Source: a virus (Duplodnaviria > Caudoviricetes). Taken from it: a stretch of DNA of 30,068 bases. Made by a program: the position numbers and the translations under genes. The DNA lies in the IMG/VR virus record IMGVR_UViG_3300030372_002232, positions 1 through 30,068 of that record; one strand, given 5' to 3'. The notes under the pieces are model-generated. The model was not told the DNA's origin. It saw only the letters and a list, made by a program, of their open reading frames with translations, and made no database searches. Below are positions 452 through 29,832 of this stretch, one piece after another. Within the stretch, counting starts at the first letter, position 1. Each line of letters begins with the position of its first letter.

Positions 452-784
452 CTATTCGTCGTTTCCTAGGACAATCGCATCCATGTCTAACTCAAAGTTG
501 GTCGAATCAATGATGTCCTGCAATGATTCTTCCTCTTCTTCACAGAAAGCCAAATCAGTATCATTCTCTTCCATTATTCTTGACGGCAAGGAAGCTGTTC
601 CTTCTGTAAATTTAAAAGCAAAACCAGCGTCCTTACTAGCCATAAGAAAGACTTGCTTCTGTGTGAATCTCCCCTCCCAGCAATCTAGTAATGCTGCGAT
701 CAAGTCTTCCCTCGAGTAGTCCCTGATCTCGATTGCAATCTTTTGAAGCAGATATGCTTGCTCCATCGTTAGATCTGGGTTCAT
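452..784 (-). CDS. nblA: NblA-like (phycobilisome degradation adaptor-like) protein with acidic C-terminal tail, 110 aa
   Basis: ATG at 784 has AGGAG (794-798) upstream. DLTMEQAYLLQKIAIEIRDYSREDLIAALLDCW resembles the NblA pattern L(S/T)(L/M)EQxF...S.E(Q/D)(A/L)...L. Confidence 0.55.
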   Translation of the reverse strand: MNPDLTMEQAYLLQKIAIEIRDYSREDLIAALLDCWEGRFTQKQVFLMASKDAGFAFKFTEGTASLPSRIMEENDTDLAFCEEEEESLQDIIDSTNFELDMDAIVLGNDE

Positions 785-1169
785 AATGAATCGCTCCTGA
801 TAAACACCATAGATCAAATAGATCGTTATTCAGAGGTGTAACCCATTCCTTAATTCTGTCTGCTTTTTCCGAGCAATAAAATGTTTGCTCTTTATACCAG
901 ACCAACCAATCACGCTGAGAACCTTTTGCCGAATTACATGGTAGACATGCTGGCACTAGATTAGTGCGAAGACTGCTACCACCAAAAGCTTTCGGTTTTA
1001 AATGATCAATCGTTAAGTGAATTTTAGCCCCTTTACTATCTACCCCGTTTCCGCAATAAGCACAACAGCCCCATTCATCTTTGATTGACTGTCTAAAACG
1101 TCTCAAAGCAGCACCTTTGGAGATCTCTACTAACCCGAAACGGTAGCTCTCCCAACGATCTGGTATCAA
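636..1169 (-). CDS. HNH endonuclease
   Basis: CAYCG...LTIDHLKPKAFGG...NLVPACLPCNSAKG: CxxC plus H-N-N and CxxC motifs of McrA-like HNH nucleases. Confidence 0.9.
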   Translation of the reverse strand: MIPDRWESYRFGLVEISKGAALRRFRQSIKDEWGCCAYCGNGVDSKGAKIHLTIDHLKPKAFGGSSLRTNLVPACLPCNSAKGSQRDWLVWYKEQTFYCSEKADRIKEWVTPLNNDLFDLWCLSGAIHYEPRSNDGASISASKDCNRDQGLLEGRLDRSITRLLGGEIHTEASLSYG

Positions 1170-10119: not shown

Positions 10120-12717
10120 TTATCCTTTGATTAATAGTTTGGTTGATGAAAGAGCGACACCAGCGTATACATCGGTTCCTGTTACAGGTGTAAGTCCAAG
10201 AGAGCCATCAAATTGAAGGTAGTATTTTTGCCCTGGAGTCAGCGATGATTTTGTAGCCGTGTTACCTACAATTTTCACACTTCCAGTAGCTCCATTACTA
10301 ATTGCGGCTTTGGCAAAACCTATAAAGTTTTCACTAGTTAAGTTTGTAGAACCTGGTATAAATGCTGCTGCATCACCTGCATCATCGTTCTGTCCATCTC
10401 TTACTGCAATTAATGCCCTTCCAACATTAGCATTCCAACCAACGGCAGATTCACCAGCACCTGCTAATACTTCAAATCTAGGTGTCCAAGTTATTGTTGT
10501 TCCACTAACTGTTCCAACAGAAGCGTATCTTTTAGATTCTGTATTAGAGTACCAAGATGCTATTACGTTGTTAGTGGCTGAATCGAGAACCGCAGACATA
10601 TTTTGAGTTTGATCTGTATCTATAGTTACTTCAGATCCCCAACTAGGATCATAGGGTGATGAGCTACCAACAGTACAGACTCTAGAGTGTAGTTTCCAAG
10701 TATCAGTATTAGTAGCATAAACTTCTACGAATTTATTAACACTAGGTACAAAGACAAGAGAGTGAGCACTTACCTCACCAGAGGCCAAGGAAACTTCACT
10801 ACTTCCACCTGAGAGGGTATTACTAAAAGACTTTGAAATAATATTGTTTGAACCTGTACTTTTTCTCCATGTAGCTAGATATCTGTCTAAGTTGGTGTCA
10901 TAAGCTACGTCTATCATGCCTGATGAACTTACACTGGTAACTTGAGTTGAACCTACGTCCCAATCCCAATCAGCATTATCGTTGTCATACTTACCCTGTG
11001 CCATCCATACATGATTATTAGTATTAGTCCAGAAGAGTGCAACTCTACTATTATCTGGATTGAAACAACATCTTAAATTCCTTGTGTCCTGAGTATCAGG
11101 GTTACCCATTAACCTATAACCCGCACCGAAAGTGATATCATCTCCTGCGCTATTAGCATAACCAACGGCTGTATGTACCCTACCCCAATCTTTATTGATA
11201 TAGGTAAGCATGAATCTATCGTTTGTGGTGTCATAACAACAATCAAGTCCTCTATATCCAAAGTATCCTCCTATCTCACCACTGCTGGAACCATCAGTAG
11301 GTATCATTCTCTGTGTTCCGTATGAAACAGTTGTTCCACTAATGGTTACACTTCTGCAATATGCAGAGGGATATTGACTGTTTGATCCAGTGCCTTTTAG
11401 ATAAAAAATTACATTATTGTTTTTATCAGGGTTATAAACAACTCGCATAGGAGCTATATAATCACTACCACTTCCACTATGGTATTCAACGGCTGTCCCT
11501 ATTGTGTCATTCTGTCCAGTAACTTTTTCAATAGTTCCGTCTGTACGTACAATACAAGCTTCTTGAATTGCAATTGCTCCTGTAGCTGTAGCTTCTATTT
11601 CAGGAGAACCTCCAACGTCCGCCCAACTAGGAGCCGCACCGCTACCACCTGACGTTAATACTTGTCCACTTGTGCCGTAGTTAGCTCCAGCAATACCAAA
11701 TTCACCTGAAGTTCCGATGCGAAGTCTTTCAGTATCTGTTCCACCAGTTGTTTTAGTATGTAACTGTAATACCCCACCACCCGCTGATTCAGCAGCCCTT
11801 ATTCTACATAAATCAGTAACATTGTTACCTTTAAACTCTAATGCAGGAGTATTGTTATTTCTATTAAATCTGATTCCAGTAGTACCTTCTTGAATATCAA
11901 ATAAAGTAAATGGATCATTAGTTCCAATACCAACTCTTCCCGCACTCGTGATCCGCATCCGTTCGGTTAAATTACTTGAGGTAGAGTCTCTAGTTTCAAA
12001 AACTAAATTTCCATGTCCACCACTTACTATTTCGTTTCCAATTCTTGCCCTTGAACTGTTAGAACCCCCATCAAAAGCTAAATATTGTGCATCTCCTACA
12101 CCTGGATCGGATCTAAGTCTTAATAATGTTATGTCTCCACTTGTAGCATTATAAATTTCTAGTTTTGCTTGAGGGCTGGTAGTTCCAATACCAACGGCAT
12201 TATTCGTGCCGTCTACAAAGAATGTTGTTCCATCTACTTTTAAATTCTTTCCAGATGCAATTTCTATATGCTCACTAGATGTCCACGAATCAGTAGCGTT
12301 TAACCAATTAAATGTTTTTGAAGTAGAGCCAAGCAAGGTCCAACCTCCCCCGTCGGCGGTGGTATCACTAGGACTAGAGACCTTACCGATTTCGATATTT
12401 TTGTCTTCTACCTGAAGTGTTGTCGTATTGATAGTTGTCGTTGTGCCGTTAACAGTTAAATCTCCACTTAGTGTGAGATTGACTCCTGTAGCATTACCCG
12501 TAAAAGCAGGGGCAGCTTTTGGTGCGAAACTAGCTACAACGAATGCAGTCGAAGCCGCTTTAGTACTATTGTCTCCTGCTGTAGCCGTTGGTACTGTGAC
12601 TGTACCCGTGAAAGTTGGATTTGCCTTTGTTGCCAGATCAGCTATGACAACAGTTATCTCATTATTCGAGCTATCCTCGTAAATCAAATCTTGAACTTTT
12701 AAATCACCAAACGCCAT
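10120..12717 (-). CDS. Tail fibre / receptor-binding protein A
   Basis: FTGTVTVPTATAGDNSTKAASTAFV fibre repeat, VEDKNIEIG module, GxVGIGTxxP and ERMRI repeats, and a C-terminal beta-rich domain. Confidence 0.88.
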   Translation of the reverse strand: MAFGDLKVQDLIYEDSSNNEITVVIADLATKANPTFTGTVTVPTATAGDNSTKAASTAFVVASFAPKAAPAFTGNATGVNLTLSGDLTVNGTTTTINTTTLQVEDKNIEIGKVSSPSDTTADGGGWTLLGSTSKTFNWLNATDSWTSSEHIEIASGKNLKVDGTTFFVDGTNNAVGIGTTSPQAKLEIYNATSGDITLLRLRSDPGVGDAQYLAFDGGSNSSRARIGNEIVSGGHGNLVFETRDSTSSNLTERMRITSAGRVGIGTNDPFTLFDIQEGTTGIRFNRNNNTPALEFKGNNVTDLCRIRAAESAGGGVLQLHTKTTGGTDTERLRIGTSGEFGIAGANYGTSGQVLTSGGSGAAPSWADVGGSPEIEATATGAIAIQEACIVRTDGTIEKVTGQNDTIGTAVEYHSGSGSDYIAPMRVVYNPDKNNNVIFYLKGTGSNSQYPSAYCRSVTISGTTVSYGTQRMIPTDGSSSGEIGGYFGYRGLDCCYDTTNDRFMLTYINKDWGRVHTAVGYANSAGDDITFGAGYRLMGNPDTQDTRNLRCCFNPDNSRVALFWTNTNNHVWMAQGKYDNDNADWDWDVGSTQVTSVSSSGMIDVAYDTNLDRYLATWRKSTGSNNIISKSFSNTLSGGSSEVSLASGEVSAHSLVFVPSVNKFVEVYATNTDTWKLHSRVCTVGSSSPYDPSWGSEVTIDTDQTQNMSAVLDSATNNVIASWYSNTESKRYASVGTVSGTTITWTPRFEVLAGAGESAVGWNANVGRALIAVRDGQNDDAGDAAAFIPGSTNLTSENFIGFAKAAISNGATGSVKIVGNTATKSSLTPGQKYYLQFDGSLGLTPVTGTDVYAGVALSSTKLLIKG

Positions 12718-12832
12718 GAAGCAATCTCTACTTTCCCAATACCCTTATTTTAGTAGAAGTCCAGTACGACTCCCGCCATACGTCAATTAATGGATAAAAG
12801 TTCTATTACACACGAGGATCACAAATTAATAA

Positions 12833-15232
12833 TTAAGTAGTTTTACGTCTAATTAGTATTTTATCTGCAGCGACAGCTAATCCACCGGGATAAGCAAGAC
12901 CACCACCACTAGTGATAGTTCCGCTGTCTGTCCAATAATAAACACTACCCGGAGTTAAACTAGACTGATTTCCAGCTACATTTCCTTCTAATTTAATAGT
13001 TCCTGTAGCTCCATCACTAATTGCATCTTCAGCAACACCAAGAAAATTTTGACCACCAGCAGTCAGGTTACTTGTATTTGACACTACACCTCCTGTTCCA
13101 GAGAAATTATAATCATTTACTCCACCATCTCCTTTGCCGATATATGCTATTTTTCCATTATGTGACATATAAACACTAGCTAATCTCTCTATATTTCCTC
13201 CATAATTAGTTATTTGCTCAGAGGCATTACTTGTATTTAAAGTTATAGCAGTTCCAGAAACTGTTCCTGATATTGCATAAACATATTTTTGATGTTGGGC
13301 ATAAATGTAATAAATATGATGCTCATCTGAGATGCAAATATTTAAACTATAATCAGGTCGGCCATGGCTTTCATAACTCTGTGCTGTACCAGATGTAATA
13401 TCAAGTGAAGATGAATTAATTGTATGTGCGTTAGTTTGTAAAGAATTAGTACCATCGTAATTCCTCCAAGCAGTAATCCAAGATCCAGAATTAGCATGAT
13501 AATTTATTGCATTAATACCATCACCATTACCTGATTTTACCGTTATTGTTGATCCTTCAGTTACAGCAGCAGCACTGTCAGTCGCAACTTTAAACGCCAT
13601 CATTCGCTGATTGCCACTTGTATCCCATATAGCAGCAGCAACATTGTTTGTTGAATCATGGCTAATATCCCAATGCCCTGCAGGATTATCTGCACCCAAT
13701 TGTTCAGCTTTTCTAAAAGTCCAAGCAGTACCTGATAAATCACCAATAATCACACCAAGAGTATTCTGAGCAAACTGACAATTAGCATTATCAGCTTTTG
13801 AGAGAACAGCTATTCGATTTGTACCTATAGCTATAGGTGCTGGTCTTTCATAATATGAACTATTGCTACTGTTTCCATCAAGATCATATTCACTACCTAA
13901 TGTATCAAAACCGTCATTAGATGAATTAACAGGTAAGATTTTTATTCTTGTACGAGTTCCATCTGTATAGACAGCCACAAATCTTTTGCCTGACATGGCA
14001 CAAATACCATATCTATCAGCAGCTACACCTCCTGATTTTATTGTGGTATGTCCATGACTTGTAAAATCAGTACCACTTGTTGAAAGTAATACGCATTTTA
14101 AATCACTTCCGCTAGTTCTAAATGCGTAACAAATTAAATCACTTTCAGAGTCATAAGCTATAGCATCTTTTTCCTGTCTTATTCTTGACCATGTATTCGA
14201 CCCAGATAGTTGCGTTCCACCTGATGAGGAAACACCATCAGTTGCTGTACCAGATAATTTTATTTCCTCTGCCTTTCCATTACTTTTAATAATTACTGGC
14301 TTACCAGCCGCAATGGCTCCATCGGCAACTAAGTTAATGGTATTTCCACCAGCTAAAGCAGAACCGTTGACATTGATTGCACCCGTTACGTTTATTCCAC
14401 CCGAAGTTGTCTCTAATTTCTTATTCCCCGTATGAAATAATTCTGCTACATTTGCATTTACTTTAAGAATATTATTTCCAGCTGCATTTGTTAAACGTAC
14501 ATCATCTCCAACAATTTTTAATGCACCTGTACCAGTATCGTTAATATATGAGTGGTTTGAAGAATGGTATATCTCAAGTCCATCAGTAGTTCCTGAAGCA
14601 CCACCAACTAAGAACTTCTTATCATCAGGTACATGTATATGCTCACTAGATGTCCAAGCATCTGTAGCATTAACCCAATTGAATGTCTTGTCGGTGGCAC
14701 CTTTCAAGGTCCAGCCTCCTCCATCGGCAGTCGTATCAGTAGGAGTTGAAACCTTGCCTATGACTATATTTTTGTCTTCAACATCAAGTGTTTGAGTATT
14801 AATGGTAGTAGTAGTGCCGTTTACAGTTAAATCTCCACTTAGTACAAGATCTGCTGCATTAACTGTTCCAGTAAATGTAGGAGCAGACAAAGGTGCATAA
14901 GTACTAGCTGCTATTGATGTTGTTAGGTAATCTCCTAATTCCGTTTGAACGTAAGCAGTAGATGCGGCTTTTGTTGAATTATCATTAGCTGTTGCTGTTG
15001 GGACTGTGACTGTCCCAGTAAATGTTGGTGATGCTTTAGGTGCAAAGCTAGTAACTACAAAAGCAGTAGATGCAGCCTTTGTAGAATTATCTCCAGCCGT
15101 AGCCGTCGGTACCGTTACAGTTCCTGTAAATGTTGGATTATTCTTAGGCGGTATATCTGCAAGGACTACTGTATTATCACCAGAGCCTGTATTCCATATC
15201 AGATTCCGAACCTTTAGGTCACCGTAAGCCAT
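12833..15232 (-). CDS. Tail fibre / receptor-binding protein B (paralogue of A)
   Basis: Same N-terminus (MAYGDLKV vs MAFGDLKV), two fibre repeats, VEDKNI module; different central and C-terminal region. Confidence 0.88.
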   Translation of the reverse strand: MAYGDLKVRNLIWNTGSGDNTVVLADIPPKNNPTFTGTVTVPTATAGDNSTKAASTAFVVTSFAPKASPTFTGTVTVPTATANDNSTKAASTAYVQTELGDYLTTSIAASTYAPLSAPTFTGTVNAADLVLSGDLTVNGTTTTINTQTLDVEDKNIVIGKVSTPTDTTADGGGWTLKGATDKTFNWVNATDAWTSSEHIHVPDDKKFLVGGASGTTDGLEIYHSSNHSYINDTGTGALKIVGDDVRLTNAAGNNILKVNANVAELFHTGNKKLETTSGGINVTGAINVNGSALAGGNTINLVADGAIAAGKPVIIKSNGKAEEIKLSGTATDGVSSSGGTQLSGSNTWSRIRQEKDAIAYDSESDLICYAFRTSGSDLKCVLLSTSGTDFTSHGHTTIKSGGVAADRYGICAMSGKRFVAVYTDGTRTRIKILPVNSSNDGFDTLGSEYDLDGNSSNSSYYERPAPIAIGTNRIAVLSKADNANCQFAQNTLGVIIGDLSGTAWTFRKAEQLGADNPAGHWDISHDSTNNVAAAIWDTSGNQRMMAFKVATDSAAAVTEGSTITVKSGNGDGINAINYHANSGSWITAWRNYDGTNSLQTNAHTINSSSLDITSGTAQSYESHGRPDYSLNICISDEHHIYYIYAQHQKYVYAISGTVSGTAITLNTSNASEQITNYGGNIERLASVYMSHNGKIAYIGKGDGGVNDYNFSGTGGVVSNTSNLTAGGQNFLGVAEDAISDGATGTIKLEGNVAGNQSSLTPGSVYYWTDSGTITSGGGLAYPGGLAVAADKILIRRKTT

Positions 15233-15289
15233 GAATAGGTTTCTTCTATTTCCCTATCAGTAGTTTAATTGAACCGAAGAACCTAACGT

Positions 15290-15463
15290 CTACTCTGGAA
15301 CGACTTCAGTAGGAGTTACCTCTTCTAATGCGTTTATTTCTTCTTGAGCAATAGCTGTCTTTAGTTCGTCAACTGCTTTATTTGCTGCTTGGAATTTAGC
15401 ACCTGCTTCGTTCTGCACTTTAACTGCTTCTATGAGCTTGCGAACAAGTTCCTGATCTGCCAT
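15290..15463 (-). CDS. Small coiled-coil protein, 57 aa, possible tail-fibre chaperone
   Basis: Read manually: MADQELVRKLIEAVKVQNEAGAKFQAANKAVDELKTAIAQEEINALEEVTPTEVVPE; sits between fibre genes, TATAAT upstream. Confidence 0.7.
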   Translation of the reverse strand: MADQELVRKLIEAVKVQNEAGAKFQAANKAVDELKTAIAQEEINALEEVTPTEVVPE

Positions 15464-15526
15464 AACAATAAATAGACGTATCCAAATTATAGATTATTTA
15501 GATGCTGACTGTGTTTTCGGCCAACA

Positions 15527-18094
15527 CTAAGCATGGGCATAATAGATAAACGATTCACCTGAACCATTTACTTTAACTACACTTCCTCCAGCACTACCAG
15601 CGGTTAATTCAAATCCAGTAGAGTTGAAATCAAGCAAATCTTCAGTTTGGACAGCATCAGGACCATGAAGACTGAAGAATTTGCCATCTCCATTAACGCT
15701 ATCAACTAACACCCAACCTTGAGCAGCAGTATATCTTTTGATAATAACTAGCCTCGGCTGAAATCCAGTTGTTATCTGTAAAGTTGAATTTGAGCCGTCA
15801 TACGATCCAACAGAACTGATGCCTTCAACGCTGGAGAAGAGCATGGCTATGTAGTCTTTACCAGTATCATTTACATCACCATTATCCTTTAAAGTAAAGT
15901 GAGTACTCGTAGGGGCTGTGTCATTCCATATATTAATTGAATCAACTTCGGCAGCATTACTATTTAAAACTAAGTGATACTGTTCTGGATTTGTTCCACC
16001 ATTCAAACCTTTGTGATACACTTTCCAATCTTTTGAACTGCTTCCTACTCTGCATTTGACCCAAATCATCTCTGGAGTTTTCGAGAGGGAATGAGGAACT
16101 GCTTGGCTACCGCTGTCATCATTTCCTGCATAAGCCACCACATCCATCCCAGCATGTCTCTTCCACATCCAAGCCTGATAATTAATAAAACTACTAGTTG
16201 AATCAAGGTAACCATTGTTAAAATCATATTGTTGGTGAGAATCTGAACTCTCAGCATCAGCCGTGTTTGTAAATAAGTATTTACCTTGAGTTAAACGAGC
16301 ACTTGTGTACCAACCTTGAGATGTTGTTGTGTATTTTGTTGTTGCAAAATCAGTAACAAATCCACTAACAAAGGTAGGTATATCAGAATTACTTGTACCC
16401 ATGACCATATTGAATACATCCGTACCAAGTTCAACGGGTTTGCCAACGTATCCATCTGATCTTCTTATCGCACAATAAATTATTGTCTCTCCATTTTCGT
16501 TGTAGTGTGCATTGCTGGCAGTAATTTTAAAACCTGTAGGAGTTAAATCTATTACGCTTTCATCATCTTCAGCATTACTTACATTTGGTCGTAAGGAAGC
16601 ATCATCACCACCTGTTGCTATTCCTCGCATTGCATCAACTATTTTCCAATCTCTACTTGAGGTTGTAGCGTTTTTCAATAGTATCCAAGACGGCTCGAAT
16701 CCTAAATTAATCTCTGGCCCTGTAGCCGATCCATTCCCAACATAACTACCGCACTTGATTATTCCTTCCTTACTGTCTCCAAATTTAAAACCAGCAGGGT
16801 CGTCGAAGGGGCTATCTGTTGATGCTGTTGGATCACCATTAGCAGTAATCGTTCCTCCTGTTGTCTTGCCTGTTGTTGAAGAGTTATTGCAACATAAAAG
16901 AACTGTATTAGTAATACTGGTTAACGGCTCAGTTGGTGGTCTAAATGATGATGTATAAACTGCTGTTCCTTTTACTAAACGTACATTACTTATATTACCT
17001 ATAAAGTTTGTTCCATAGTTACTTGCAACCTTAAATGTTTTATTGGTAGAACTTCCCCAATCATTGCTGTCAGTAAATTGGCCTTGTTTTACACCATTCA
17101 TGTAAAAACTAACAGTTGAACCAGATCTAACTATTGCATAATGACACCACTGATCTCTAGGAGGTAATGATAAAGCAAATTCTTGATCGCCTCCGTGGTT
17201 AATATAAAATTTACTATTGTAGCAATAAATAAGGGCTCCACCAGCAACATTATACGCACCTATTTCCATAATCCCTTCAGGGCCAGCTGATGGAGTAGAG
17301 GTACGTTTGCACCACCATTCCAGTGTAAAATCTCCAGTTAAATGAAAATCATCACTAGCAGCTAGTGATAAATGGTCATTCCCATCAAATACAACAGACC
17401 TTGCAGTAGCGGCTGTGGACTCACCTCCTCCGAATAGGTAGGCTACATAATTGTGACCGTTTTCATTAACTATTCCATTCCATCCCACAGTAAATACAGA
17501 AGCCGTGGGAGGAGTATCACCCCATATTGTTGAGTCTTCTTCTTGATCGTCAGTTGTATTGAGCCTTAGCCAACTTCTAGATGTATTAGGTAAATCTCTA
17601 TGCCATACAGCCCAAGCATCACTACCAGTTGTCTTCTTGACTATAATCATCCCCGGCACACACCCAAGTGAATGACTTATGTTTTGAGCAGAATTTTGGC
17701 CGCTATAGGTAACAACATCACAGAACCCTTTTGCCTTGCGGAATGTAAATGAGGCATAGTCATTAGATGATGCATTTACTTGTGTATTAGTACCTAATTT
17801 AAAACCATTAGCATTAAATCCAGTAAGACGTTGACCTAAGCCTGCATTATCCGTATTTGAATTTGTTATAAGTCTTTCATTATGACCTCGAACCGTATCA
17901 TATATAAGGTTATCATCTGTTCCATTTCTTTTCTTAATCCATGTCATACCTCCTTCACCAGATAAATTAATTCCATTATTTATATTTCTATTTTCTGTTG
18001 AATTTCCTTCCCAGACGTACGTGCTGAACACATCGTCCAAATACGTCTTCTCGCTGGCACCTACGCCAAGCATTAATTGTTGAATTGGTGTCAT
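15527..18094 (-). CDS. Repeat-containing tail-fibre-like protein with inserted LamG/ConA-like domain
   Basis: About five repeats of the type Y.GN.....I.(H/.)..G..P..I..K...W...Y(I/V).Y; central SVVFDG...DFTLEWW...QWCHYAIVRSG..FYMNG...GNISNVRLVKG LamG signature. Confidence 0.85.
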   Translation of the reverse strand: MTPIQQLMLGVGASEKTYLDDVFSTYVWEGNSTENRNINNGINLSGEGGMTWIKKRNGTDDNLIYDTVRGHNERLITNSNTDNAGLGQRLTGFNANGFKLGTNTQVNASSNDYASFTFRKAKGFCDVVTYSGQNSAQNISHSLGCVPGMIIVKKTTGSDAWAVWHRDLPNTSRSWLRLNTTDDQEEDSTIWGDTPPTASVFTVGWNGIVNENGHNYVAYLFGGGESTAATARSVVFDGNDHLSLAASDDFHLTGDFTLEWWCKRTSTPSAGPEGIMEIGAYNVAGGALIYCYNSKFYINHGGDQEFALSLPPRDQWCHYAIVRSGSTVSFYMNGVKQGQFTDSNDWGSSTNKTFKVASNYGTNFIGNISNVRLVKGTAVYTSSFRPPTEPLTSITNTVLLCCNNSSTTGKTTGGTITANGDPTASTDSPFDDPAGFKFGDSKEGIIKCGSYVGNGSATGPEINLGFEPSWILLKNATTSSRDWKIVDAMRGIATGGDDASLRPNVSNAEDDESVIDLTPTGFKITASNAHYNENGETIIYCAIRRSDGYVGKPVELGTDVFNMVMGTSNSDIPTFVSGFVTDFATTKYTTTSQGWYTSARLTQGKYLFTNTADAESSDSHQQYDFNNGYLDSTSSFINYQAWMWKRHAGMDVVAYAGNDDSGSQAVPHSLSKTPEMIWVKCRVGSSSKDWKVYHKGLNGGTNPEQYHLVLNSNAAEVDSINIWNDTAPTSTHFTLKDNGDVNDTGKDYIAMLFSSVEGISSVGSYDGSNSTLQITTGFQPRLVIIKRYTAAQGWVLVDSVNGDGKFFSLHGPDAVQTEDLLDFNSTGFELTAGSAGGSVVKVNGSGESFIYYAHA

Positions 18095-18095
18095 A

Positions 18096-19160
18096 TCAGC
18101 TCAACCCTGCACCTGAGATGTAGGCAACACTACTTGCTTGGAACCAAATAGTAGCCATTCCACGAGCCGCAAGTGTGCGATTTCCTGTTGCTGCATCGGC
18201 AGCGTTGTGAAGAGTTAAACCACTAGCTTGAGTAATCGTAATATCTGAGCCACTATGATTGATTATTGTCACGGCACTACCACCAGTAAAGACACCGTTA
18301 GGGACAGTAACTCCTCCACTTGTGTTAGTAACTGCTTTACCAACATCACTACTTGATAATGTGTAAGCAGAAGTTGTTGCGTTGTTGGGTATTTTTCTTA
18401 ATTCACCAATGCTGTCTGATACCGTTCCAGCAAACGTGGCGTTACCCGAACCTGTTACGGTTATATTTGACACCCAAGAGCCAGTTGATTTGCTATCTAG
18501 TACAAAGTCTCCGCCTGATTCTGCGTGAAATCTCCAGTAGTCAGCATTATCATCACCTTCGTCAGCAGTAAGTTTAAGAATTGCACCATTACCTTCTGCT
18601 CCTTTAATTGAAATTTCACCAGCAGTAGTTTCTATACCTTGATTAAACGTCCAATAATCAGTAGCGTTTACCCAAAGAATCGACTTGTCGGATGCGCCTT
18701 TGAGAATTATGCCTCCCTGATCCGCAGTCGTATCACTAGGACTAGATACCTTACCGATTTCAATCTGCTTGTCTTCTACATCTAACGTCTGAGTATTAAT
18801 TATCGTCTGAGTGCCATTAACCGTCAGATTCCCGCTTAGTGTGAGATTTACTCCTGTTGCCGTTCCTGTAAATGCAGGATCAGCTTTGGGTGCAAAACCA
18901 GCAACGACAAAGGCTGTTGAGGCAGCTTTAGTACTGTTATCTCCTGCTGTAGGCGTTGGGATTGTAACAGTCCCAGTGAATGTGGGGCTTGCGTCTGAAT
19001 ACGTAAGAGCTACTAAAGATGAACCTTCTTTGACATATAGCTTATTTTGATCTTCGGCATAACTAATCTCTCCATCTTGAAGATCTGAAATACTACCGTT
19101 TAAATTTGAATAAGAACCTCTTGCTATTCTTACTGGTGTTCTAGTGCTGGGAGTTGGCAT
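18096..19160 (-). CDS. Tail fibre protein C
   Basis: N-terminal RIARG...LQDGEISY...KLY anchor motif; shares the fibre repeat and VEDK module with fibres A and B. Confidence 0.85.
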   Translation of the reverse strand: MPTPSTRTPVRIARGSYSNLNGSISDLQDGEISYAEDQNKLYVKEGSSLVALTYSDASPTFTGTVTIPTPTAGDNSTKAASTAFVVAGFAPKADPAFTGTATGVNLTLSGNLTVNGTQTIINTQTLDVEDKQIEIGKVSSPSDTTADQGGIILKGASDKSILWVNATDYWTFNQGIETTAGEISIKGAEGNGAILKLTADEGDDNADYWRFHAESGGDFVLDSKSTGSWVSNITVTGSGNATFAGTVSDSIGELRKIPNNATTSAYTLSSSDVGKAVTNTSGGVTVPNGVFTGGSAVTIINHSGSDITITQASGLTLHNAADAATGNRTLAARGMATIWFQASSVAYISGAGLS

Positions 19161-19162
19161 AG

Positions 19163-19483
19163 TTAGCTACCGAAATCGCCTCCGTCAAATACATTCGCTG
19201 TACTTATCGTAGACGTTCCGTTATTGAAGTTACCTCCATCAATCATAATTAAAGTTCCACCTATCTCACCCCAACTTGATGTATAGCCTTCAAACTTAGA
19301 CGTTGTTGTGTTATATCTAAACATCCCTGCTGCTGCACTACCCGGTCTTTGAGCAGTAGTACCAGCATTTAACTTCAAAGCTCCAGTATTGAAGAGATGA
19401 ATGTTTATTAAATCAAGAGTGACATCTGTACCTGAATCGTTGTACAGAAACTCATCAATTTTTAGTTTTCCGTATTGTGGCAT
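19163..19483 (-). CDS. Short tail-fibre-associated protein
   Basis: GTTAQRP...GMFRYNTTTSKFEGY motif typical of phage fibre proteins; N-terminus YGKLKI resembles fibres A and B. Confidence 0.8.
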   Translation of the reverse strand: MPQYGKLKIDEFLYNDSGTDVTLDLINIHLFNTGALKLNAGTTAQRPGSAAAGMFRYNTTTSKFEGYTSSWGEIGGTLIMIDGGNFNNGTSTISTANVFDGGDFGS

Positions 19484-19484
19484 T

Positions 19485-19997
19485 TTAAAGAATCACCCAT
19501 ACTCTATTTTGGGGTACCGTCACGACGGCATTGTTTTGAATCGTCATTGGTCCGACTGATACGGCGTTTTTGTCACCATCGCCATCGCCAATTGTGTATG
19601 AAGTCGTAACTGTATATTGATTTTCAAGAAACGACTCATCAGTTCCACCACCAGATCCAGCCCCGCCGCCACCGCCTACAGCAGTCCAAGCGTTGATTGA
19701 TCCAGCTAAATATATTTTAGTGCTTGAGTCAGTTGTGTTATGCCACCAATCACCTTCGTTCATTCCAGATGATGGGGCTGATGTTTGAATATAAACCTTA
19801 CTTCCACCAACAGATTCCCATGCACTGCCATTCCACATCTTGAGCAGACTATTTGTGGTGTCGTACCACATGTCTGCTGTCTGTGCAGTAGGCGCTGAAG
19901 ATGCTCTATAAATCCAAGGTGTATTTAAACGATCACTAGCAATATCCAATTCGCTTGGATAGCCATTGATATAAATTATCGGTTTGCGTGTTGCCAT
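19485..19997 (-). CDS. Tail-fibre-associated protein
   Basis: Two SAP...(G)DxW(Y/H)(D/N)T...LK repeats and a C-terminal NAVSVGPMTI...VTVP...WVIL motif. Confidence 0.8.
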   Translation of the reverse strand: MATRKPIIYINGYPSELDIASDRLNTPWIYRASSAPTAQTADMWYDTTNSLLKMWNGSAWESVGGSKVYIQTSAPSSGMNEGDWWHNTTDSSTKIYLAGSINAWTAVGGGGGAGSGGGTDESFLENQYTVTTSYTIGDGDGDKNAVSVGPMTIQNNAVVTVPQNRVWVIL

Positions 19998-20548: not shown

Positions 20549-21967
20549 CTAAGGAATGATTATTGGAGCGGTGTTTGACCCTCCTTTTACTACTTCAATC
20601 ATCGGGTAACTAACACCTCCAATTGTTACTGTGCTTTCAAATTGTTGGTTGCTTGCATTGAAGATTCTGATCTCTTGCGTACCTCTTTTACACCACCAAT
20701 CATTCTGTCTGCACCAGCTTGCTTCTGGTTCTTCGTGATCATTCCAGAGCATTGGTCTATTGTCTGATCTAATATTATTTCTTACGTCTGTACCCGGAAA
20801 AAGTTCTAAGCCAACAACTTCTGCTAAAGCCAAGGCGTACCTGTCGTAGTTAACTCGATGTCTTGCGTTGTATTCGTCATAGACCTCATCACTAAACTCT
20901 CGCTCCATACTTGAATCTGTAAGCAATCCACTAGTGTTGTCGCCGTAATACTGAGTTGGAAAATCGTTTGGTTCATACCAAGGGATTCCACATTCCCATC
21001 TCATCGCATGCATATGTTTACATTCGCGACGTTCGTCAATGCGACCTTGTAGAGAACGCCACTGCCTGTAATAACCAGCACCCTGTCTTTCCCATGCAGC
21101 CCTAACAGTTCTACTGGCGTTAGGTAATGGGAACATATCTTGATCAACTTCTCCTTTCGGAAATTCAAGGTTGGCTAATGCGCCACCTAGATGATCAGGA
21201 CAGCAGCAAAACATCTTTGTAGAAGAGCAAAGATGACGAGTTCCATCTGTCTTCCAAATATTTGGAGAAGATGGATTGTAATCAAGTTTTTTCCAATAAA
21301 TTGTATTGTTGTATTTAACTCTTCCATAGGCTTTTGACAAGTCAAATACCAATGTCATCGAACCTGTATTTGCAGCAATTAAAGTTAAAGCAACACTTCC
21401 TTCTGGTTTAGTAACAACATCATCTGGGTAATTAGGTCCAGACGCTGTGTCTTCGAATTGATCACCGATAAAAATAGAAAAAATACCAACTTGAGATGAA
21501 GTTAAGACTCCGTTGACGTTGTAAGTCAACGTATGATTTGCAGGATCAGGATCACTTGTATTCGTTGATATTTGCGACGATGTCAAAGCATTGGGAAGAA
21601 TAATACTTCCTCTTGTTCTTTGTCCTACATACCACGTTCTCTCAGGACTAGTCTCACTTGGGAACATTGTGACAATGTCCTTTGATATACCGCTAACAGC
21701 ACCTGTTGTAAATCGACTATTGCTGTATATAGATAAGTCATCCCAGCTTCTACCCGTGCCAAAATAATAGGCTTGACCTAACTGCCATCTCTTGTAATCG
21801 CTTTGACGATTATACGACTCAAGAATTGTAGGGAACTGAGCTGTTCCGTAGAGACCTAATCCTTTACCTTTACTCGGATATAAACCTTTTGCCTTGTTTA
21901 ATCCAATTCCTTTCGTAACAGGTTGAAGCCCGAAACCTGTACTTAGGCTTCCGAGACCTTTACCCAT
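20549..21967 (-). CDS. Hypothetical protein with SWIM-like zinc-finger motif
   Basis: FCCCPDH ... CKHMHA (CxC...CxH) with a long spacer; 472 aa within the structural operon. Confidence 0.7.
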   Translation of the reverse strand: MGKGLGSLSTGFGLQPVTKGIGLNKAKGLYPSKGKGLGLYGTAQFPTILESYNRQSDYKRWQLGQAYYFGTGRSWDDLSIYSNSRFTTGAVSGISKDIVTMFPSETSPERTWYVGQRTRGSIILPNALTSSQISTNTSDPDPANHTLTYNVNGVLTSSQVGIFSIFIGDQFEDTASGPNYPDDVVTKPEGSVALTLIAANTGSMTLVFDLSKAYGRVKYNNTIYWKKLDYNPSSPNIWKTDGTRHLCSSTKMFCCCPDHLGGALANLEFPKGEVDQDMFPLPNASRTVRAAWERQGAGYYRQWRSLQGRIDERRECKHMHAMRWECGIPWYEPNDFPTQYYGDNTSGLLTDSSMEREFSDEVYDEYNARHRVNYDRYALALAEVVGLELFPGTDVRNNIRSDNRPMLWNDHEEPEASWCRQNDWWCKRGTQEIRIFNASNQQFESTVTIGGVSYPMIEVVKGGSNTAPIIIP

Positions 21968-23232
21968 TATCTAAAACTACTTGATGGGTCGAAGTAAGTA
22001 CTACCTCGCTCTTCTCCAGACCTCAACCCTGCTTTTGCGTATGGTCTGTCCTCTCTCACTCTTGGACCAGCAGTGATTCTGCTTCTTTTTCTTGAACGAT
22101 CTGAAGTTGCAGTAGCTCCTGAAGTTAGATCACCTCTTCTTCTGCCTGGGAAACTTCCAACACTAAATCCTCTAGTCAACTGTGATGTCTCATCAGCACG
22201 TTGAGCGTTGATATAAGAATCTGCTTCTCTTCTTGCGTCGTCGTAATCAGATTCTAGTTGTGCGTATTTTTCTTTATTTTTGTTGAGTGCATCGTCGTAC
22301 TCGATTTGAGTGCCGCCGTCATCAGTGTTATCAGTATTGTCAGTATTGTCTGTGTTATCAGTGTTATCAGTGTTATCAGTGTTATCGGTATCATCAGTGT
22401 CATCAGTTATAGGCACACATCCAGTACCTGCGCTGTTTAATTGCTGACCCGAACCACAAACAATCGGTAATTCATCTTCTTCTTCGGTACTTGTATCACA
22501 GTTAGATCCATCCCAAGTACCACCAGATTGAGCACATGCATACTCATCGCTTCGTCTGATATTTGCTAATACTTGTTCTCTTGTCTGCTTAGGTCTGTCG
22601 TCCTGACCATAAGTTAATTCGGTATCGCCCCTTAAATCACCCATCCAGTAATTTCTACCCTCATCTCCTAATTGTCTACCAAGTTCACTCTCGTAAATAT
22701 CATTTAGCCACTTTTCGTTGCTGAGATTGATATTTGATTCAACCTCTTCACGAGTAGCACCTCTTCCTAAGTCTCCTAGCCAATATTCTCGACCTTCATC
22801 TCCAAGATCACGATTTAATGCTGTTTGATAAGTACTCTGTAACCACTCCTCATCGTTCTGACCAGAACCTGCTGTATCGTTGATATTTTGATATTCATTG
22901 CTACGCCTGAAATTGTCTACAACTTCTTGCTGCGTTTGTGCCCCACTATTGATTTGTTCAGCCCAGTAATTAGCTCCTGCGGTATCTGGCTCTCTATCTA
23001 ATTCAATCTTGTATGTATCTTCAATAAACTGCTGAGTTTCCACTTCCTTGTCTGCTTTGATCTGCTTTGCTTCATCTGAAGAATCAAATAATGCAGCAAC
23101 TTGATCAGCACTTGTTTTCCCTGAATCTAATTCAGCCTTCCAATAAGCCTTGCCTGCCGCGTCAGGTGCTCTACCAAACTTCTCTTGGTAAAGCTGATCT
23201 AAATATGCTCCTGTATCAGCAAGTGACGACAT
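21967..23232 (-). CDS. DUF4214 repeat protein (S-layer N-terminal-like domain) with Cys motifs and TDN repeats
   Basis: Four repeats of Y...(L/F).R...D..G..YW...(L/I)..G...R..V...(F/I)..S.E; then CAQSGGTWDGSNC, CGSGQQLNSAGTGC, an acidic repeat and a basic tail. Confidence 0.8.
   Translation of the reverse strand: MSSLADTGAYLDQLYQEKFGRAPDAAGKAYWKAELDSGKTSADQVAALFDSSDEAKQIKADKEVETQQFIEDTYKIELDREPDTAGANYWAEQINSGAQTQQEVVDNFRRSNEYQNINDTAGSGQNDEEWLQSTYQTALNRDLGDEGREYWLGDLGRGATREEVESNINLSNEKWLNDIYESELGRQLGDEGRNYWMGDLRGDTELTYGQDDRPKQTREQVLANIRRSDEYACAQSGGTWDGSNCDTSTEEEDELPIVCGSGQQLNSAGTGCVPITDDTDDTDNTDNTDNTDNTDNTDNTDNTDDGGTQIEYDDALNKNKEKYAQLESDYDDARREADSYINAQRADETSQLTRGFSVGSFPGRRRGDLTSGATATSDRSRKRSRITAGPRVREDRPYAKAGLRSGEERGSTYFDPSSSFR
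22318..22407 (-). repeat. 9-bp tandem repeat, 10 units, encoding (TDD)2(TDN)7(TDD)
   Basis: atcagtgtt-like units directly visible, with synonymous variation. Confidence 0.9.
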
Positions 23233-25681: not shown

Positions 25682-26110
25682 CTAGGCAATGTAGATAAGG
25701 TCTTCTTTAAATACCTCATCCCAATCAACTCTCGAGATCTTTTTAAGTTGATCTAATTTTGAAAATCTTTCTCCGGGTAGAGATAATCTGAGTTCGATAA
25801 TTTTCTTAGCAGTTGCATATCCAATCCCTTTAACTTGCTTGGCAAGTGATTCTGCTGTGGCAACATTCACGTTAAGCCTTGTATCTAATGGGATTACAGC
25901 TTCTGGAATTTTATCCTCATCCTTCTTTTCCATAACAACTGGTTCAACCTTCTGACCCGTTCGACCTTTGTTTGCTTCGTAGGAAACCAGATCATCTAAA
26001 GCAACGTATTGAACTACGCCTGTCGCATTCTTGACCATTGCCCAGTCTTTGTCGTGATGTCCAATGAACTCGACAACTTGACCGTTCCTTTGATTTTGAT
26101 ATAACGCCAT
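25682..26110 (-). CDS. Helix-hairpin-helix (ComEA-like) DNA-binding protein
   Basis: LNVNVATAESLAKQVKGIGYATAKKIIELR...FSKLDQLKKI. Confidence 0.85.
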   Translation of the reverse strand: MALYQNQRNGQVVEFIGHHDKDWAMVKNATGVVQYVALDDLVSYEANKGRTGQKVEPVVMEKKDEDKIPEAVIPLDTRLNVNVATAESLAKQVKGIGYATAKKIIELRLSLPGERFSKLDQLKKISRVDWDEVFKEDLIYIA

Positions 26111-26819: not shown

Positions 26820-28551
26820 TCAATATACGAATGAGTAAGCAACGGTAATGAAGTCCTTATTAAGAATTTCAAAACCAGCAAAGAGACTCCAAATCATAAT
26901 GATGAATCTTGAGAAATCATCATTGTTATTAAGAAGAATCTGTGCGTTGTTACCACCAATACCTACGCCAACTGCCTGTGGTCCGAAGAACAACATTGGA
27001 GCAATTGTGTAGTTAGCTGCACCAGCATTTGCTGTGTCAACTGCAATATTTGCATTGATAGTTTTCTCAGGCAAGTTGGTTGATTCGAACCATCTTACGC
27101 CCTCGAACAAAAATCCCGTCGGCATGACAGGCTGTCCGGCAACGAAGCCAGCTTGTCCATAAGCTGGACCCATTCCTTGGAAGAAGTTAGCGTTAGGTGC
27201 CTCGGATGGATTCATGGGGTTAACCATTCCATTCCCAGCGTACCGAGCTATTTCACGGAAAGCATCATTTTGCAGTAGCCGTTCATATCTCTTGATATGA
27301 CTGGCTTTTTGTTACCCCGAAAGCTCTTTATCTCTCGGTTCAATACCTTTTCAATCGGTATTGCTCAGACTATATCATCACAGCTTTGTTTCTTTTGGAA
27401 ACTAGTTCTGCGGAGGGGACTCGTGGAGATTTTACTCAGTTACCTGTCGATCTCTAGTCGTTGAACCTTCCAACTTGTAGGTTGGCTTGGCTGCTGATCA
27501 CCCAGTTATAGGGGGCTTCCAGCAATTCACCCTCTTCTCTCTTATTAATTACTTAATAAGGGCGCAAATGATGTGCTTCGTGCAAATTTTCTAATGTTGT
27601 TTGCACTAACTACCTTTAGTAGGCAGTAAGACTCATTATGTCTACGCAAGTGCATCATTGCCGTCGGATCGGCTATACACCTGTAGTATCCGTCAGAGAA
27701 CGTCGGTACGTTTCTCTTACGCATATCCTTGACGACCTGTAAAAGGTCTGTCTTTACGTCGAACTTAGCAGATATGTTTGCACCGTATGTAAAGACTGGG
27801 TTACCTGCTGCTTTTGCAGCTCCACCTGGGAAGTAGTAACCACCTTCACTTGAAGATGCTAAACCGTTTGCTTCTGCCTTGAATAGTTCGTCAGCAAAGA
27901 CTCTATCTCTCCAACGTCTGTAGTCATCAAGAAGGGTTAATGAACCTATTGACTGATGGAATACGTTGAGGTTACCAGTGTCTAAAAGTAGACGCTGTGC
28001 TGTTAAGAGAGTCTCACGAGCAACCTTGAATGTTGAAGGAGTAGTTGGAGCTGCTGGATCAGCAGGACCGGTGTACTCTTTTAGGTTGACGAGGACTTTG
28101 TCCTTAACAATGTTTCTGCTAGATGCTGTGCCAAGTGTTTGATCAGCAGTACGCTCTCTGGAATCCTTATTACCTGGATTACCCCAGAAGCGATATCTGT
28201 CTAATTGAACAGTTTGACCAGGTTGCTTACTGAAATCGTGAACAACCACAGGCTCTACAGCCATCTCGATGATATAACCGGGATGAGGTCTATAAAGCTC
28301 TGCACCTAACAGTTTTGGAACGTGAATACCCCTACTTTCATAGGGCACCGACTATATCATCACTTTTTACAGTGCCGGACGCTCGTGCCTGTAATTAAGA
28401 GAACTGTATCTCTCAGGTAGTCTGTGAACCTTCCAGAGATGTATCTCTGGCTTGGCTGCTGATTGCCTTATCTCGCGACTTAGGTTTCCAGCAATTCATC
28501 CGGTTTTAAATGATCCTAGAGTCTTACGACTGAATCATTATCAATCCACAT
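26820..28551 (-). CDS. Major capsid protein, 382 aa after splicing; exons 28551-28533, 28320-27644, 27272-26820
   Basis: Removing both introns at U|...G| junctions gives MWIDND-F-PKLLGAELYRPHP... and ...AMMHLR-QNDAFREIARYAGNGMVNPM... in one frame (19+677+453 nt). Motifs PGQTVQLDRY, YRCIADP, GFLFEGVRWFES and FFGPQAVG fit HK97-fold capsids (N4-gp56-like). Confidence 0.88.
27273..27643 (-). ncRNA. Group I intron 2 (371 nt, IA-like, no internal nuclease ORF)
   Basis: P AATTGCTGGAA, Q GATCAGCAG, R GTTCAACGACTA, S ATGATATAGTCT. P2 CTTATTAA-GTAA-TTAATAAG; P1 GCGT/GCGC with U-G; P7.1 insertion; three P9 hairpins; ends in G; splicing restores the frame. Confidence 0.93.
28321..28532 (-). ncRNA. Group I intron 1 (212 nt, IA-like, no internal ORF)
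   Basis: P AATTGCTGGAAA, Q AATCAGCAG, R GTTCACAGACTA, S ATGATATAGTCG. P1 AATGATT/GATCATT with U-G at the splice site; P3 CCGGAT/GTCCGG; P9 CCCTAT-GAAA-GTAGGG; terminal G. Confidence 0.93.
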
Positions 28552-28640
28552 TGGGATTTATAACTCCGAAACTTATAGGGAACAAATACACACCTATAGT
28601 GTGTTGCTTATATCATAAATACATCTCATAGGGTAAAAAT

Positions 28641-29348
28641 TTGGAGCCCACAGATGTTCGTGGAATCTTGGGATTGTTGATAGCAGACGGTAGCCTTGTC
28701 CCATATCGCACTCCCAGCGGGGGATATGTGCAGTTAACGATGACGGCAGGTGAATCTGACTCCGCATTCCTTGAAGAAAAAGTTGAAGAATTTAAGCAAT
28801 TTATTTTCACTAGGGCCAAAATTGTTCCCTATAAGACCAGACAACGTAGTGATGGTAAAAGAAGTACTGTTTTACGTTTTAGAGTCTCAACTAACAAATT
28901 GCGTCCTGTATACAATCTTCTCTACCCCATCGGAGAGAGACAGATAACACAAACCACACTTAATTTGCTTGGAGCACAAGCAGCTGCATGGCTCTGGGCG
29001 GAAAGTGTAAAAATCCACAAAAAAGGAACTGCTTTGCTTAGCAGGGTTGGATGTACTCAAGAAGAAGCGCAAATGATCTCCAGTTGGCTACAAATGTTGA
29101 CTGGCGCAACGTCAAAACTAGATGAAACATACACGAGACCCAGAATCCTTTTTGATAAAGAGCAAACGTTGAAGATCCAAGAAGGTCTTATTGATTACGC
29201 ACCTAAAAGCAGAAAACATTTATTTCTTCAGGAGGATTGGAATGTCAGCTCAATTCGTAGCGCACGCACTGAGCTACATCTTGGGAAAGGGGAGCATCAG
29301 TCTGAAAGGACCGAAGAAGCGACCTTGGCTGGAAATTGCAAGATCTGA
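28641..29348 (+). CDS. Free-standing LAGLIDADG-family protein 1 (LAGLIDADG_2-like)
   Basis: Motif 1 ILGLLIADGSL; linker YNLLYP.GERQI; degenerate motif 2 AAAWLWAES. Confidence 0.8.
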   Translation: MEPTDVRGILGLLIADGSLVPYRTPSGGYVQLTMTAGESDSAFLEEKVEEFKQFIFTRAKIVPYKTRQRSDGKRSTVLRFRVSTNKLRPVYNLLYPIGERQITQTTLNLLGAQAAAWLWAESVKIHKKGTALLSRVGCTQEEAQMISSWLQMLTGATSKLDETYTRPRILFDKEQTLKIQEGLIDYAPKSRKHLFLQEDWNVSSIRSARTELHLGKGEHQSERTEEATLAGNCKI

Positions 29349-29832
29349 AATAGATCGTAGATATTTATCCCACCAGCTAAGGCTTTTAAAGGAACACCAT
29401 GACGGAGCCTTTGAGTTCTATCGAGACCGTATTGCCACGGATGGTTTCTACGACAAGGAAAGGTTTCGCTTTCAAGGCGATAATTTATGGAGAGTATATG
29501 AGTTGATTTATCCGAAAGATAAGAAGCGTTTATCTAGAGAAGTGCTAAATATTGCTGGACTTAAAGGAGCTGCTGCTTTATGGATAGACCAGGGAAGAGT
29601 AATTGGAAAGCAAGGCTCTATCAGAGGAAGATACAGCGAACATGACTACGGAGAATTGGAATCATGGTTCAATGATCTTGGAATACCAACAAAGATCCTT
29701 AGAAATCAAATCAGTATTATTCACTTGAGCTTCAAGAAAGATTCATTAAATGAATTAAGACAACTGATCAGACCCCTCGTACACATCAATATGAGAAAAA
29801 CATTGCAGCAACGTATCTCAAATTTCAGGTAG
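29242..29832 (+). CDS. Free-standing LAGLIDADG-family protein 2 (degenerate)
   Basis: ATG 29242 preceded by AGGAGG (29230-29235); motif 1 ALSYILGKGSI; linker YELIYPKDKKRL; motif 2 AAALWIDQG. Confidence 0.75.
   Translation: MSAQFVAHALSYILGKGSISLKGPKKRPWLEIARSEIDRRYLSHQLRLLKEHHDGAFEFYRDRIATDGFYDKERFRFQGDNLWRVYELIYPKDKKRLSREVLNIAGLKGAAALWIDQGRVIGKQGSIRGRYSEHDYGELESWFNDLGIPTKILRNQISIIHLSFKKDSLNELRQLIRPLVHINMRKTLQQRISNFR

Follow-up and report, generated by a model that had tools for sequence, protein, structure and literature searches.

The locus analysed here raises the question of how a virus obtains its most abundant virion protein from a gene whose reading frame closes after 11 codons. The window, i.e. 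the whole stretch of 30,068 nucleotides of virus DNA that was analysed, contains a minus-strand gene which, when left unspliced, is translated to MWIDNDSVVRL followed by a stop. We consider it very probable that this is a major capsid gene with two ORF-less, self-splicing group I introns, selfish elements that lost their endonuclease and are reshuffled by recombination.

Joining the three exons listed in Table 1 results in 1149 nt, which correspond to 382 amino acids plus a stop, and each of the two introns (212 and 371 nt) is preceded by U and has G as its last base. A GTG within intron 1 starts a called ORF of 267 aa (28348-27545) in frame with exon 2, so that gene callers break the capsid gene into pieces of 267 and 135 aa. 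Since further U/G boundary pairs also leave the frame open, the splice boundaries were decided by homologues, and only those given in Table 1 yield junction peptides that are invariant, on both junction flanks, in the 30 aligned intron-less proteins, which were chosen out of 61 uninterrupted homologues. When the spliced protein was compared with 80 viral loci fetched with exon 2, 61 aligned in one piece over residues 1-382 with 81-96% identity, while eight of the remaining 19 are truncated by contig ends and 11 carry introns. The first-pass annotation of this DNA had described two ORF-less group I introns in a capsid gene with a 19-nt first exon, a single 382-aa frame after excision of both, an unspliced frame that gene callers start wrongly and fragment, and intron-less homologues that should be colinear across the junctions. 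All of this was confirmed, at exactly the coordinates it gave, and its further claim that both excisions are needed for the native capsid protein is supported. A purine motif like the putative ribosome-binding site is found upstream of the start codon in most relatives. A small hairpin is predicted over the start codon (28541-28556, minus strand) and a similar one in 74 of 76 relatives, a count made without a shuffle control; it may affect translation or the folding of P1. A promoter scan gave fewer matches than shuffled sequences did.

Table 1. Features of the capsid locus and of the adjoining LAGLIDADG_2-like genes in the window.
Feature	Position	Strand	Basis and remarks
Putative ribosome-binding site GGAG	28564..28567	-	12 nt upstream of start codon; sequence
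Exon 1, major capsid gene, 19 nt	28533..28551	-	homologues; RNA contigs join exon 1 to exon 2
Group I intron 1, 212 nt, ORF-less	28321..28532	-	RF00028; covariation; kin of S-PM2 psbA intron
In-frame stop met after 11 codons without splicing	28516..28518	-	sequence
Internal guide of intron 1, 7-bp P1, U-G at 5' splice site	28509..28515	-	sequence, covariation
P7.1 extension of intron 1, between P7 5' strand and P3'	28388..28417	-	
Exon 2, 677 nt	27644..28320	-	frame and homologues
Group I intron 2, 371 nt, ORF-less	27273..27643	-	RF00028; fold z -5.5; covariation
P1-loop insertion of intron 2, 67 nt, predicted three hairpins	27577..27643	-	
Internal guide of intron 2, 4-bp P1 with U-G and predicted P10 with start of exon 3	27562..27573	-	
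P7.1 extension of intron 2	27426..27454	-	two-sided changes in 4 of 5 outer pairs
Exon 3, 453 nt including stop	26820..27272	-	frame and homologues
LAGLIDADG_2-like gene A	28641..29348	+	Pfam PF03161, E 1.8e-10; clade-conserved
Degenerate LAGLIDADG_2-like gene B	29245..29832	+	PF03161, E 0.007, below cut-off; clade-conserved

The identity of the gene product was approached through an intron-less homologue with 96% identity (L002), which matches the major head protein family phrog_1357 over residues 34-379 (E 1.3e-21), while its matches to Pfam Phage_capsid_3 and TIGR04387 lie below the cut-offs; Atlas assigns capsid-family clusters (0.97). An earlier structure model from a shallow alignment was unusable (pLDDT 42), and the L002 model from a 40-sequence alignment reached a pLDDT of 81.6. 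In the Foldseek comparison of the latter, all 24 PDB rows among the matches listed are virion or capsid structures of phages or haloarchaeal viruses, the best being the capsid of cyanophage P-SCSP1u (E 1.1e-13); the capsids of P-SCSP1u, Pan3, GP4 and N4 match with E 1e-13 to 1e-10 and TM 0.44-0.50, and the matching BFVD rows are mostly named capsid proteins. By sequence, a PDB search with one protein gave no match and a profile search gave weak capsid matches alone (E 0.007). The assignment as a tailed-phage (HK97-fold) major capsid protein holds on the predicted fold of L002, and a scan of 29 window ORFs identified no second capsid gene.

Synechococcus phage S-EIVl is the sole GenBank phage matched by exon 2 (78.5%) and the only cultured relative found. 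Its capsid gene (L081:5980-7131, KJ410740.1) is an uninterrupted frame of 383 codons, which GenBank annotates as two hypothetical genes, one on the minus and thus wrong strand and the other a fragment of 156 aa. Because of this kinship and of photosystem reaction-centre genes in two of five related near-complete genomes, that of L002 included, the host is likely cyanobacterial and the virus likely a marine S-EIVl-like cyanophage. Elsewhere, the window contains a run of tail-fibre or virion structural genes (10120-19997, minus strand), four DUF4214 repeats (21967-23232), a helix-hairpin-helix motif (25682-26110) and, far from the capsid gene, a free-standing HNH endonuclease gene (636-1169, minus strand).

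The full RF00028 model matches intron 1 at 28552-28329 (86.6 bits, E 5e-21) and intron 2 at 27589-27341 (61.8 bits, E 1.4e-13), both above the cut-off of 50, and no other Rfam match was found in the 30-kb window. The core helices P3, P4, P6, P7 with the G-binding site, P8 and P9 are present, as checked and counted pair by pair, and the P1 helices with a U-G pair (7 bp and 4 bp) and the terminal G, which had been read from the sequence in the first-pass annotation along with the group I cores, were found in both introns. P4 and P7 are invariant, P8 and P9 covary in both intron families and P3 covaries in the family of intron 1. In the 12 introns located after nt 18 or 19 of the spliced gene, 96.8% of the cells are paired and 24 of 68 pairs changed on both sides, a covariation score reached by none of 500 shuffles, with slid controls at 33-42%; the corresponding values for eight introns of the intron-2 family are 98.7%, 27 of 69, none of 500 and 34-47%, where it has to be considered for both sets that structures drawn by hand from the window's own sequences are favoured over slid controls and that kin sequences can beat shuffles. 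Despite this bias, the compensatory changes are scattered over many helices, and in P1 of intron 1 a U-A pair has become C-G in two relatives (L174 and L179), the guide changing together with a synonymous exon base.

In both introns, P7 and P3' are separated by a covarying helix some 30 nt long. Helices P7.1/P7.2 at this position are a feature of subgroup IA (IA2/IA3-like). Intron 2 is the long version of an intron of 250-257 nt at the same site (nt 696), the short form of which lacks the P1-loop insertion; the long version has extra hairpins too. An identical copy of intron 1 is present in L189, and intron 2 also occurs in L042, L195, L197, L198, L336 and L344. In most introns an in-frame stop arises within 0-12 codons, while intron 2 deviates with 32 codons; an early in-frame stop is described as usual for introns (PMC3073962). 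By model score, core helices, P1 and terminal G, the two blocks are group I introns, and they would work like ordinary phage group I introns. Both would likely leave the late mRNA by self-splicing to give the 382-aa capsid protein: following group I chemistry, free guanosine bound in P7 would attack at the U-G pair of P1, and the freed exon would then attack at the terminal G.

Support for splicing in nature comes from environmental RNA, in line with the first-pass proposal to look for the exon junctions in metatranscriptomes: marine metatranscriptome contigs from two studies join the exons at both predicted junctions. Eight of 23 listed runs were compared, seven of them RNA and all as assembled contigs. 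The 371-nt skip of intron 2 is a listed joint in X1 and X4 (study P1) and in X5 (study P2), although the short side of the X4 joint (27272/27644) comprises only 19 letters and the X5 joint is marked "between: not known". The 212-nt skip of intron 1 is a listed joint in X1 and X4, and one X1 contig of 875 nt spans both junctions, being 99% identical to the window with eight other letters and two gaps. In X2, X3 and X5, loose contig ends read on into the neighbouring exon, and X10 shows the join of exon 1 to exon 2 from a more distant allele, while no exon joint was found in X9. X18, whose type is not on record, crosses the exon-intron borders of both introns. A contig of intron 2 in X2/X3 (one sample, depth 2-3) starts exactly at the 5' splice site with four unaligned letters; it was not counted as excised intron, since contigs cannot show RNA ends. 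Missing cover of intron 1 and depth differences in the RNA runs were not used as evidence either.

The joined RNA contigs could also stem from an unsampled intron-less allele instead of splicing, given that the joints are known from assembled contigs of RNA libraries only. In this respect the nt-19 flank is undiagnostic, being common to ten carrier rows and 12 intron-less rows. The flank at nt 696 (the 11 bases opening exon 3) was considered unique to intron carriers, a view weakened by L341, a 77% identical allele that has this flank without an intron there; as it occurs in the RNA contigs, it is nevertheless shared with seven carrier contigs against this one intron-less contig, and the nt-107 flank in the RNA contigs is shared with nine carriers and no non-carrier. 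Among the matches listed by the protein-led scans described below, moreover, the closest wholly intron-free allele has only 86.7% DNA identity, and introns are present in each of the four alleles that are closer. The differences of X1, X2, X4 and X5 at 28220-28235 match the flank of nt-107 carriers, as read by hand from the tables, so that the source of these RNAs may be an allele with three introns, after splicing. Overall, the exon-joined RNA contigs make it likely that both introns are spliced out in nature.

Comparison with related alleles revealed that the capsid gene is an intron hotspot. Introns were located at 14 sites, after nt 12, 18, 19, 51, 107, 144, 257, 265, 397, 418, 696, 849, 1055 and 1062 of the spliced gene, of which 257, 265 and 1062 were read by hand. 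Two protein-led scans, which retained the best 80 matches out of roughly 40% of the collection and in which split genes may be under-represented, found at least one intron in 17 of 117 distinct contigs and none in the other 100. The 17 carriers include L062, which was left out of the site table because the 3' end of its intron and its frame look damaged. The sub-lineage of the window is intron-rich, with at least one intron in four of the five closest alleles among the matches listed in these scans. No single site is fixed, and the intron sets mix freely among alleles with more than 87% identity. L197 (1429-3949) contains five ORF-less introns, each of which exceeds the Rfam cut-off, with an exon of 37 nt between the first two, and splices to 382 aa; L344, an independent assembly, contains both window introns and two more. 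The spliced frame is open in all seven multi-intron alleles tested.

The sites lie in conserved stretches of the gene (p 0.002 for 12 sites, 0.024 for nine clusters). All 11 RF00028 matches in ten whole related records (619 kb) fall in the capsid gene, but six of these records were chosen because they hold capsid introns, and endonuclease-split introns elsewhere could be missed. A family-wide core pattern, applied to three of the 64 parts of the collection, hit this capsid gene at only four of 123 loci; the intron family itself is therefore not capsid-specific. Although they occupy different sites, the intron at nt 144 in L174 and that at nt 51 in L341 have almost the same structured insertion in their P5 region, some 85 nt long, so that introns may have exchanged sequence with one another. 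Short database proteins of the capsid family often stop near residues 31-40, 88-93 or 138-160, close to intron sites. This suggests wide fragmentation of the gene by gene calling; contig ends may also explain it.

Within the window introns no intron-encoded homing endonuclease was found, the longest ATG-started frames measuring 28 aa (intron 1) and 55 aa (intron 2), and on the features tested they are not homing introns. In more distant capsid genes, however, introns of the family at nt 107 (L250), 144 (L215) and 265 (L338) contain a LAGLIDADG_2 gene of about 250 aa, which begins right after the 5' strand of P7, i.e. at the position of the P7.1 hairpin of the compact introns. The nt-144 intron of L338 retains just the tail of such a gene, a partly deleted intermediate, so that at this one site the endonuclease gene is found complete, partly deleted or lost altogether. 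As a whole, these two distant capsid genes contain four introns (L338:1-2850) and three introns (L215:1-2650), a mixture of endonuclease-bearing, partly deleted and compact forms. In a further allele (L112:1028-2222), the intron at nt 418 is 1195 nt long and contains a double-motif LAGLIDADG gene in antisense orientation; it gave no RF00028 match at the cut-off. The pattern is that expected of endonuclease gain and loss, and it suggests that the window introns lost theirs. This history is inferred from other sites, as no endonuclease-bearing form was found at nt 18/19 (20 of 33, nine and five loci in three overlapping searches, all ORF-less; the other 13 matches of the first search are unrelated to the capsid gene) or at nt 696 (four and seven of eight loci in two overlapping searches, all ORF-less), with search patterns some of which depended on the 5' junction or on the P1 loop being short.

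By sequence, intron 1 is related to the psbA introns of the cyanomyovirus S-PM2 (78.9% over 160 nt, E 9e-31, the P7.1 region included) and of S-SRM01 (80.6%), while no close named relative of intron 2 was found among GenBank phages. For psbA of S-SRM01, an endonuclease-bearing intron has been published (PMC8557907); further along psbA, after the annotated partial gene (L340, MW015081.1), we observed a second, compact intron that is near intron 1 in sequence.

Several other explanations of the locus were weighed. The early stop of the unspliced gene would fit a pseudogene in which the two blocks are either assembly artefacts or insertions in decay. We regard this as extremely improbable, since the cores are intact and covarying, both introns occur in independent assemblies and across the exon-intron borders in X18, the spliced frames are open in the multi-intron alleles tested and no second capsid gene was identified among the window ORFs scanned. 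Collaborative homing would mean that the two LAGLIDADG_2-like genes (28641-29832), which overlap each other, are divergent from the capsid gene and are conserved across one clade, spread the ORF-less introns, in the same way as the free-standing F-CphI spread the S-PM2 psbA intron, the kin of intron 1 (PMC6083498). The pair adjoins the capsid gene, and gene A matches PF03161 and shares 26% identity with an intron-borne endonuclease across 155 aa. However, in 106 rows gene A is present beside 37 intron-less and 15 intron-bearing alleles and missing beside 45 intron-less and nine intron-bearing ones, and a complete genome of 80 kb (G002) lacks it despite an nt-18 intron, in an allele that looks damaged. 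As its presence does not track the introns, the pair was rejected as a dedicated homing partner. In addition, the second motif of gene A lacks the acidic pair present in the intron-borne enzymes, a nuclease cutting the intron-less site could not reside in intron-less genomes, and one enzyme cannot serve 14 sites. A stop lies inside 14 of 49 gene-A slices, probably the natural stop within the slice end, and no match of gene A was found among GenBank phages. On the features tested, the window introns are not a collaborative-homing system, an explanation we hold to be very unlikely; genes A and B may encode domesticated proteins that bind DNA or RNA and descend from intron endonucleases.

It would also be conceivable that the introns are retained as a control device, with splicing gating capsid synthesis by light or energy state. 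The psbA intron of S-PM2, the kin of intron 1, is reported to splice in a light-dependent manner (PMC5931967), the 19-nt exon 1 would place the initiating ribosome on the P1 strand, and most of the closest alleles in the protein-led scans carry introns. The 100 intron-less contigs in the same scans (best 80 matches) argue against this, and the absence of a fixed site and the free mixing of intron sets fit parasites better than a conserved switch, which makes such a device unlikely. More credit, though still rather little, can be given to the proposal that new sites are colonised via RNA, by reverse splicing into guide-matched targets or by intron-intron recombination, and not by endonucleases. 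Guide and core of the nt-1062 intron of L338 are those of the short nt-696 introns, and the last four exon bases are identical at the two sites; introns thus seem to have moved between sites whose exon ends match. The introns at nt 107 and nt 1055 likewise have their guide and 5' flank in common and form one group in a tree. On the other hand, the family has endonuclease-bearing members, off-target cleavage by endonucleases would lead to the same pattern, and a source on the RNA pathway describes it as being without direct evidence (PMC3984707). Combining the two ideas, the capsid mRNA of a widespread marine cyanophage lineage would be a stack of up to five ORF-less ribozymes, related to the light-responsive S-PM2 psbA intron, that act as a serial splicing gate coupling virion output to the light and energy state of the host, at sites colonised by guide-matched RNA insertion without endonucleases; we consider this combination improbable. 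The favoured account of selfish introns that lost their endonuclease would instead see them as passengers of a very conserved gene, which likely arrived as mobile forms with a LAGLIDADG gene in the P7.1 position, would have lost it by deletion and would now be reshuffled between co-infecting phages by recombination. Such reshuffling would account for the way in which introns are freely present or absent at the 14 positions.

Introns in orf142 of the staphylococcal phage Twort are likewise ORF-less. Three of them are reported from this tail tube gene (PMC11878797, PMC3073962), which resembles the window lineage in that a single late structural gene holds several small introns of similar kind but differs in being a tail gene and in its reported exon skipping. 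The first-pass annotation had placed phage group I introns mostly in genes other than capsid genes. This background is weakened by published capsid-gene introns (PMC3706429, PMC7886860), which make the capsid location less surprising than first thought. For the major capsid gene of mycobacteriophage LittleE, a spliced group I intron was demonstrated by RT-PCR and N-terminal sequencing, and the same report cites a capsid-gene intron of the lactococcal phage Tuc2009 (PMC3706429). These are group I introns in a major capsid gene as in the window, with splicing during late expression reported for LittleE; the LittleE intron, however, is a single one of 819 bp with an antisense endonuclease gene, a layout also found at nt 418 in L112, whereas the introns of the window gene are two, both compact and ORF-less, and its first exon has 19 nt. 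For crAss-like phages of the groups Delta and Zeta, group I introns are reported in the MCP genes, one of which is in five pieces (PMC7886860). The occurrence of several introns in one capsid gene is shared with the window lineage, in which they are mostly ORF-less, while most of those in the crAss-like phages were found via endonuclease domains and many of their core genes are hit. The psbA intron of S-PM2 is, like intron 1, an ORF-less intron in a cyanophage mRNA, but it differs in host gene, phage lineage, P1 and P9. Moreover, S-PM2 has F-CphI, whereas no matching helper nuclease was found in the window, and the window gene contains two introns, with up to five in its relatives. Among the top literature matches listed, none deals with capsid-gene introns in cyanophages or S-EIVl-like phages, and the supplementary intron tables of phage surveys may already hold such elements. 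What is new is the host lineage, together with how densely ORF-less introns occupy a single gene, the support from environmental RNA and the endonuclease-loss series.

With 14 positions and zero to five introns per allele, this 1.15-kb gene offers a natural series for the study of intron gain and loss, and, together with the endonuclease series at nt 144, makes the cycle of endonuclease loss and the ectopic movement of introns testable in phages. Because gene callers fragment or miss this marker gene, the intron-less S-EIVl gene being mis-annotated too, lineage surveys based on capsid genes are biased. Serial splicing, with exons down to 12-37 nt, is likely tolerable even for the most abundant virion protein, and if splicing proved to be regulated by light, the importance of these introns would be much greater.
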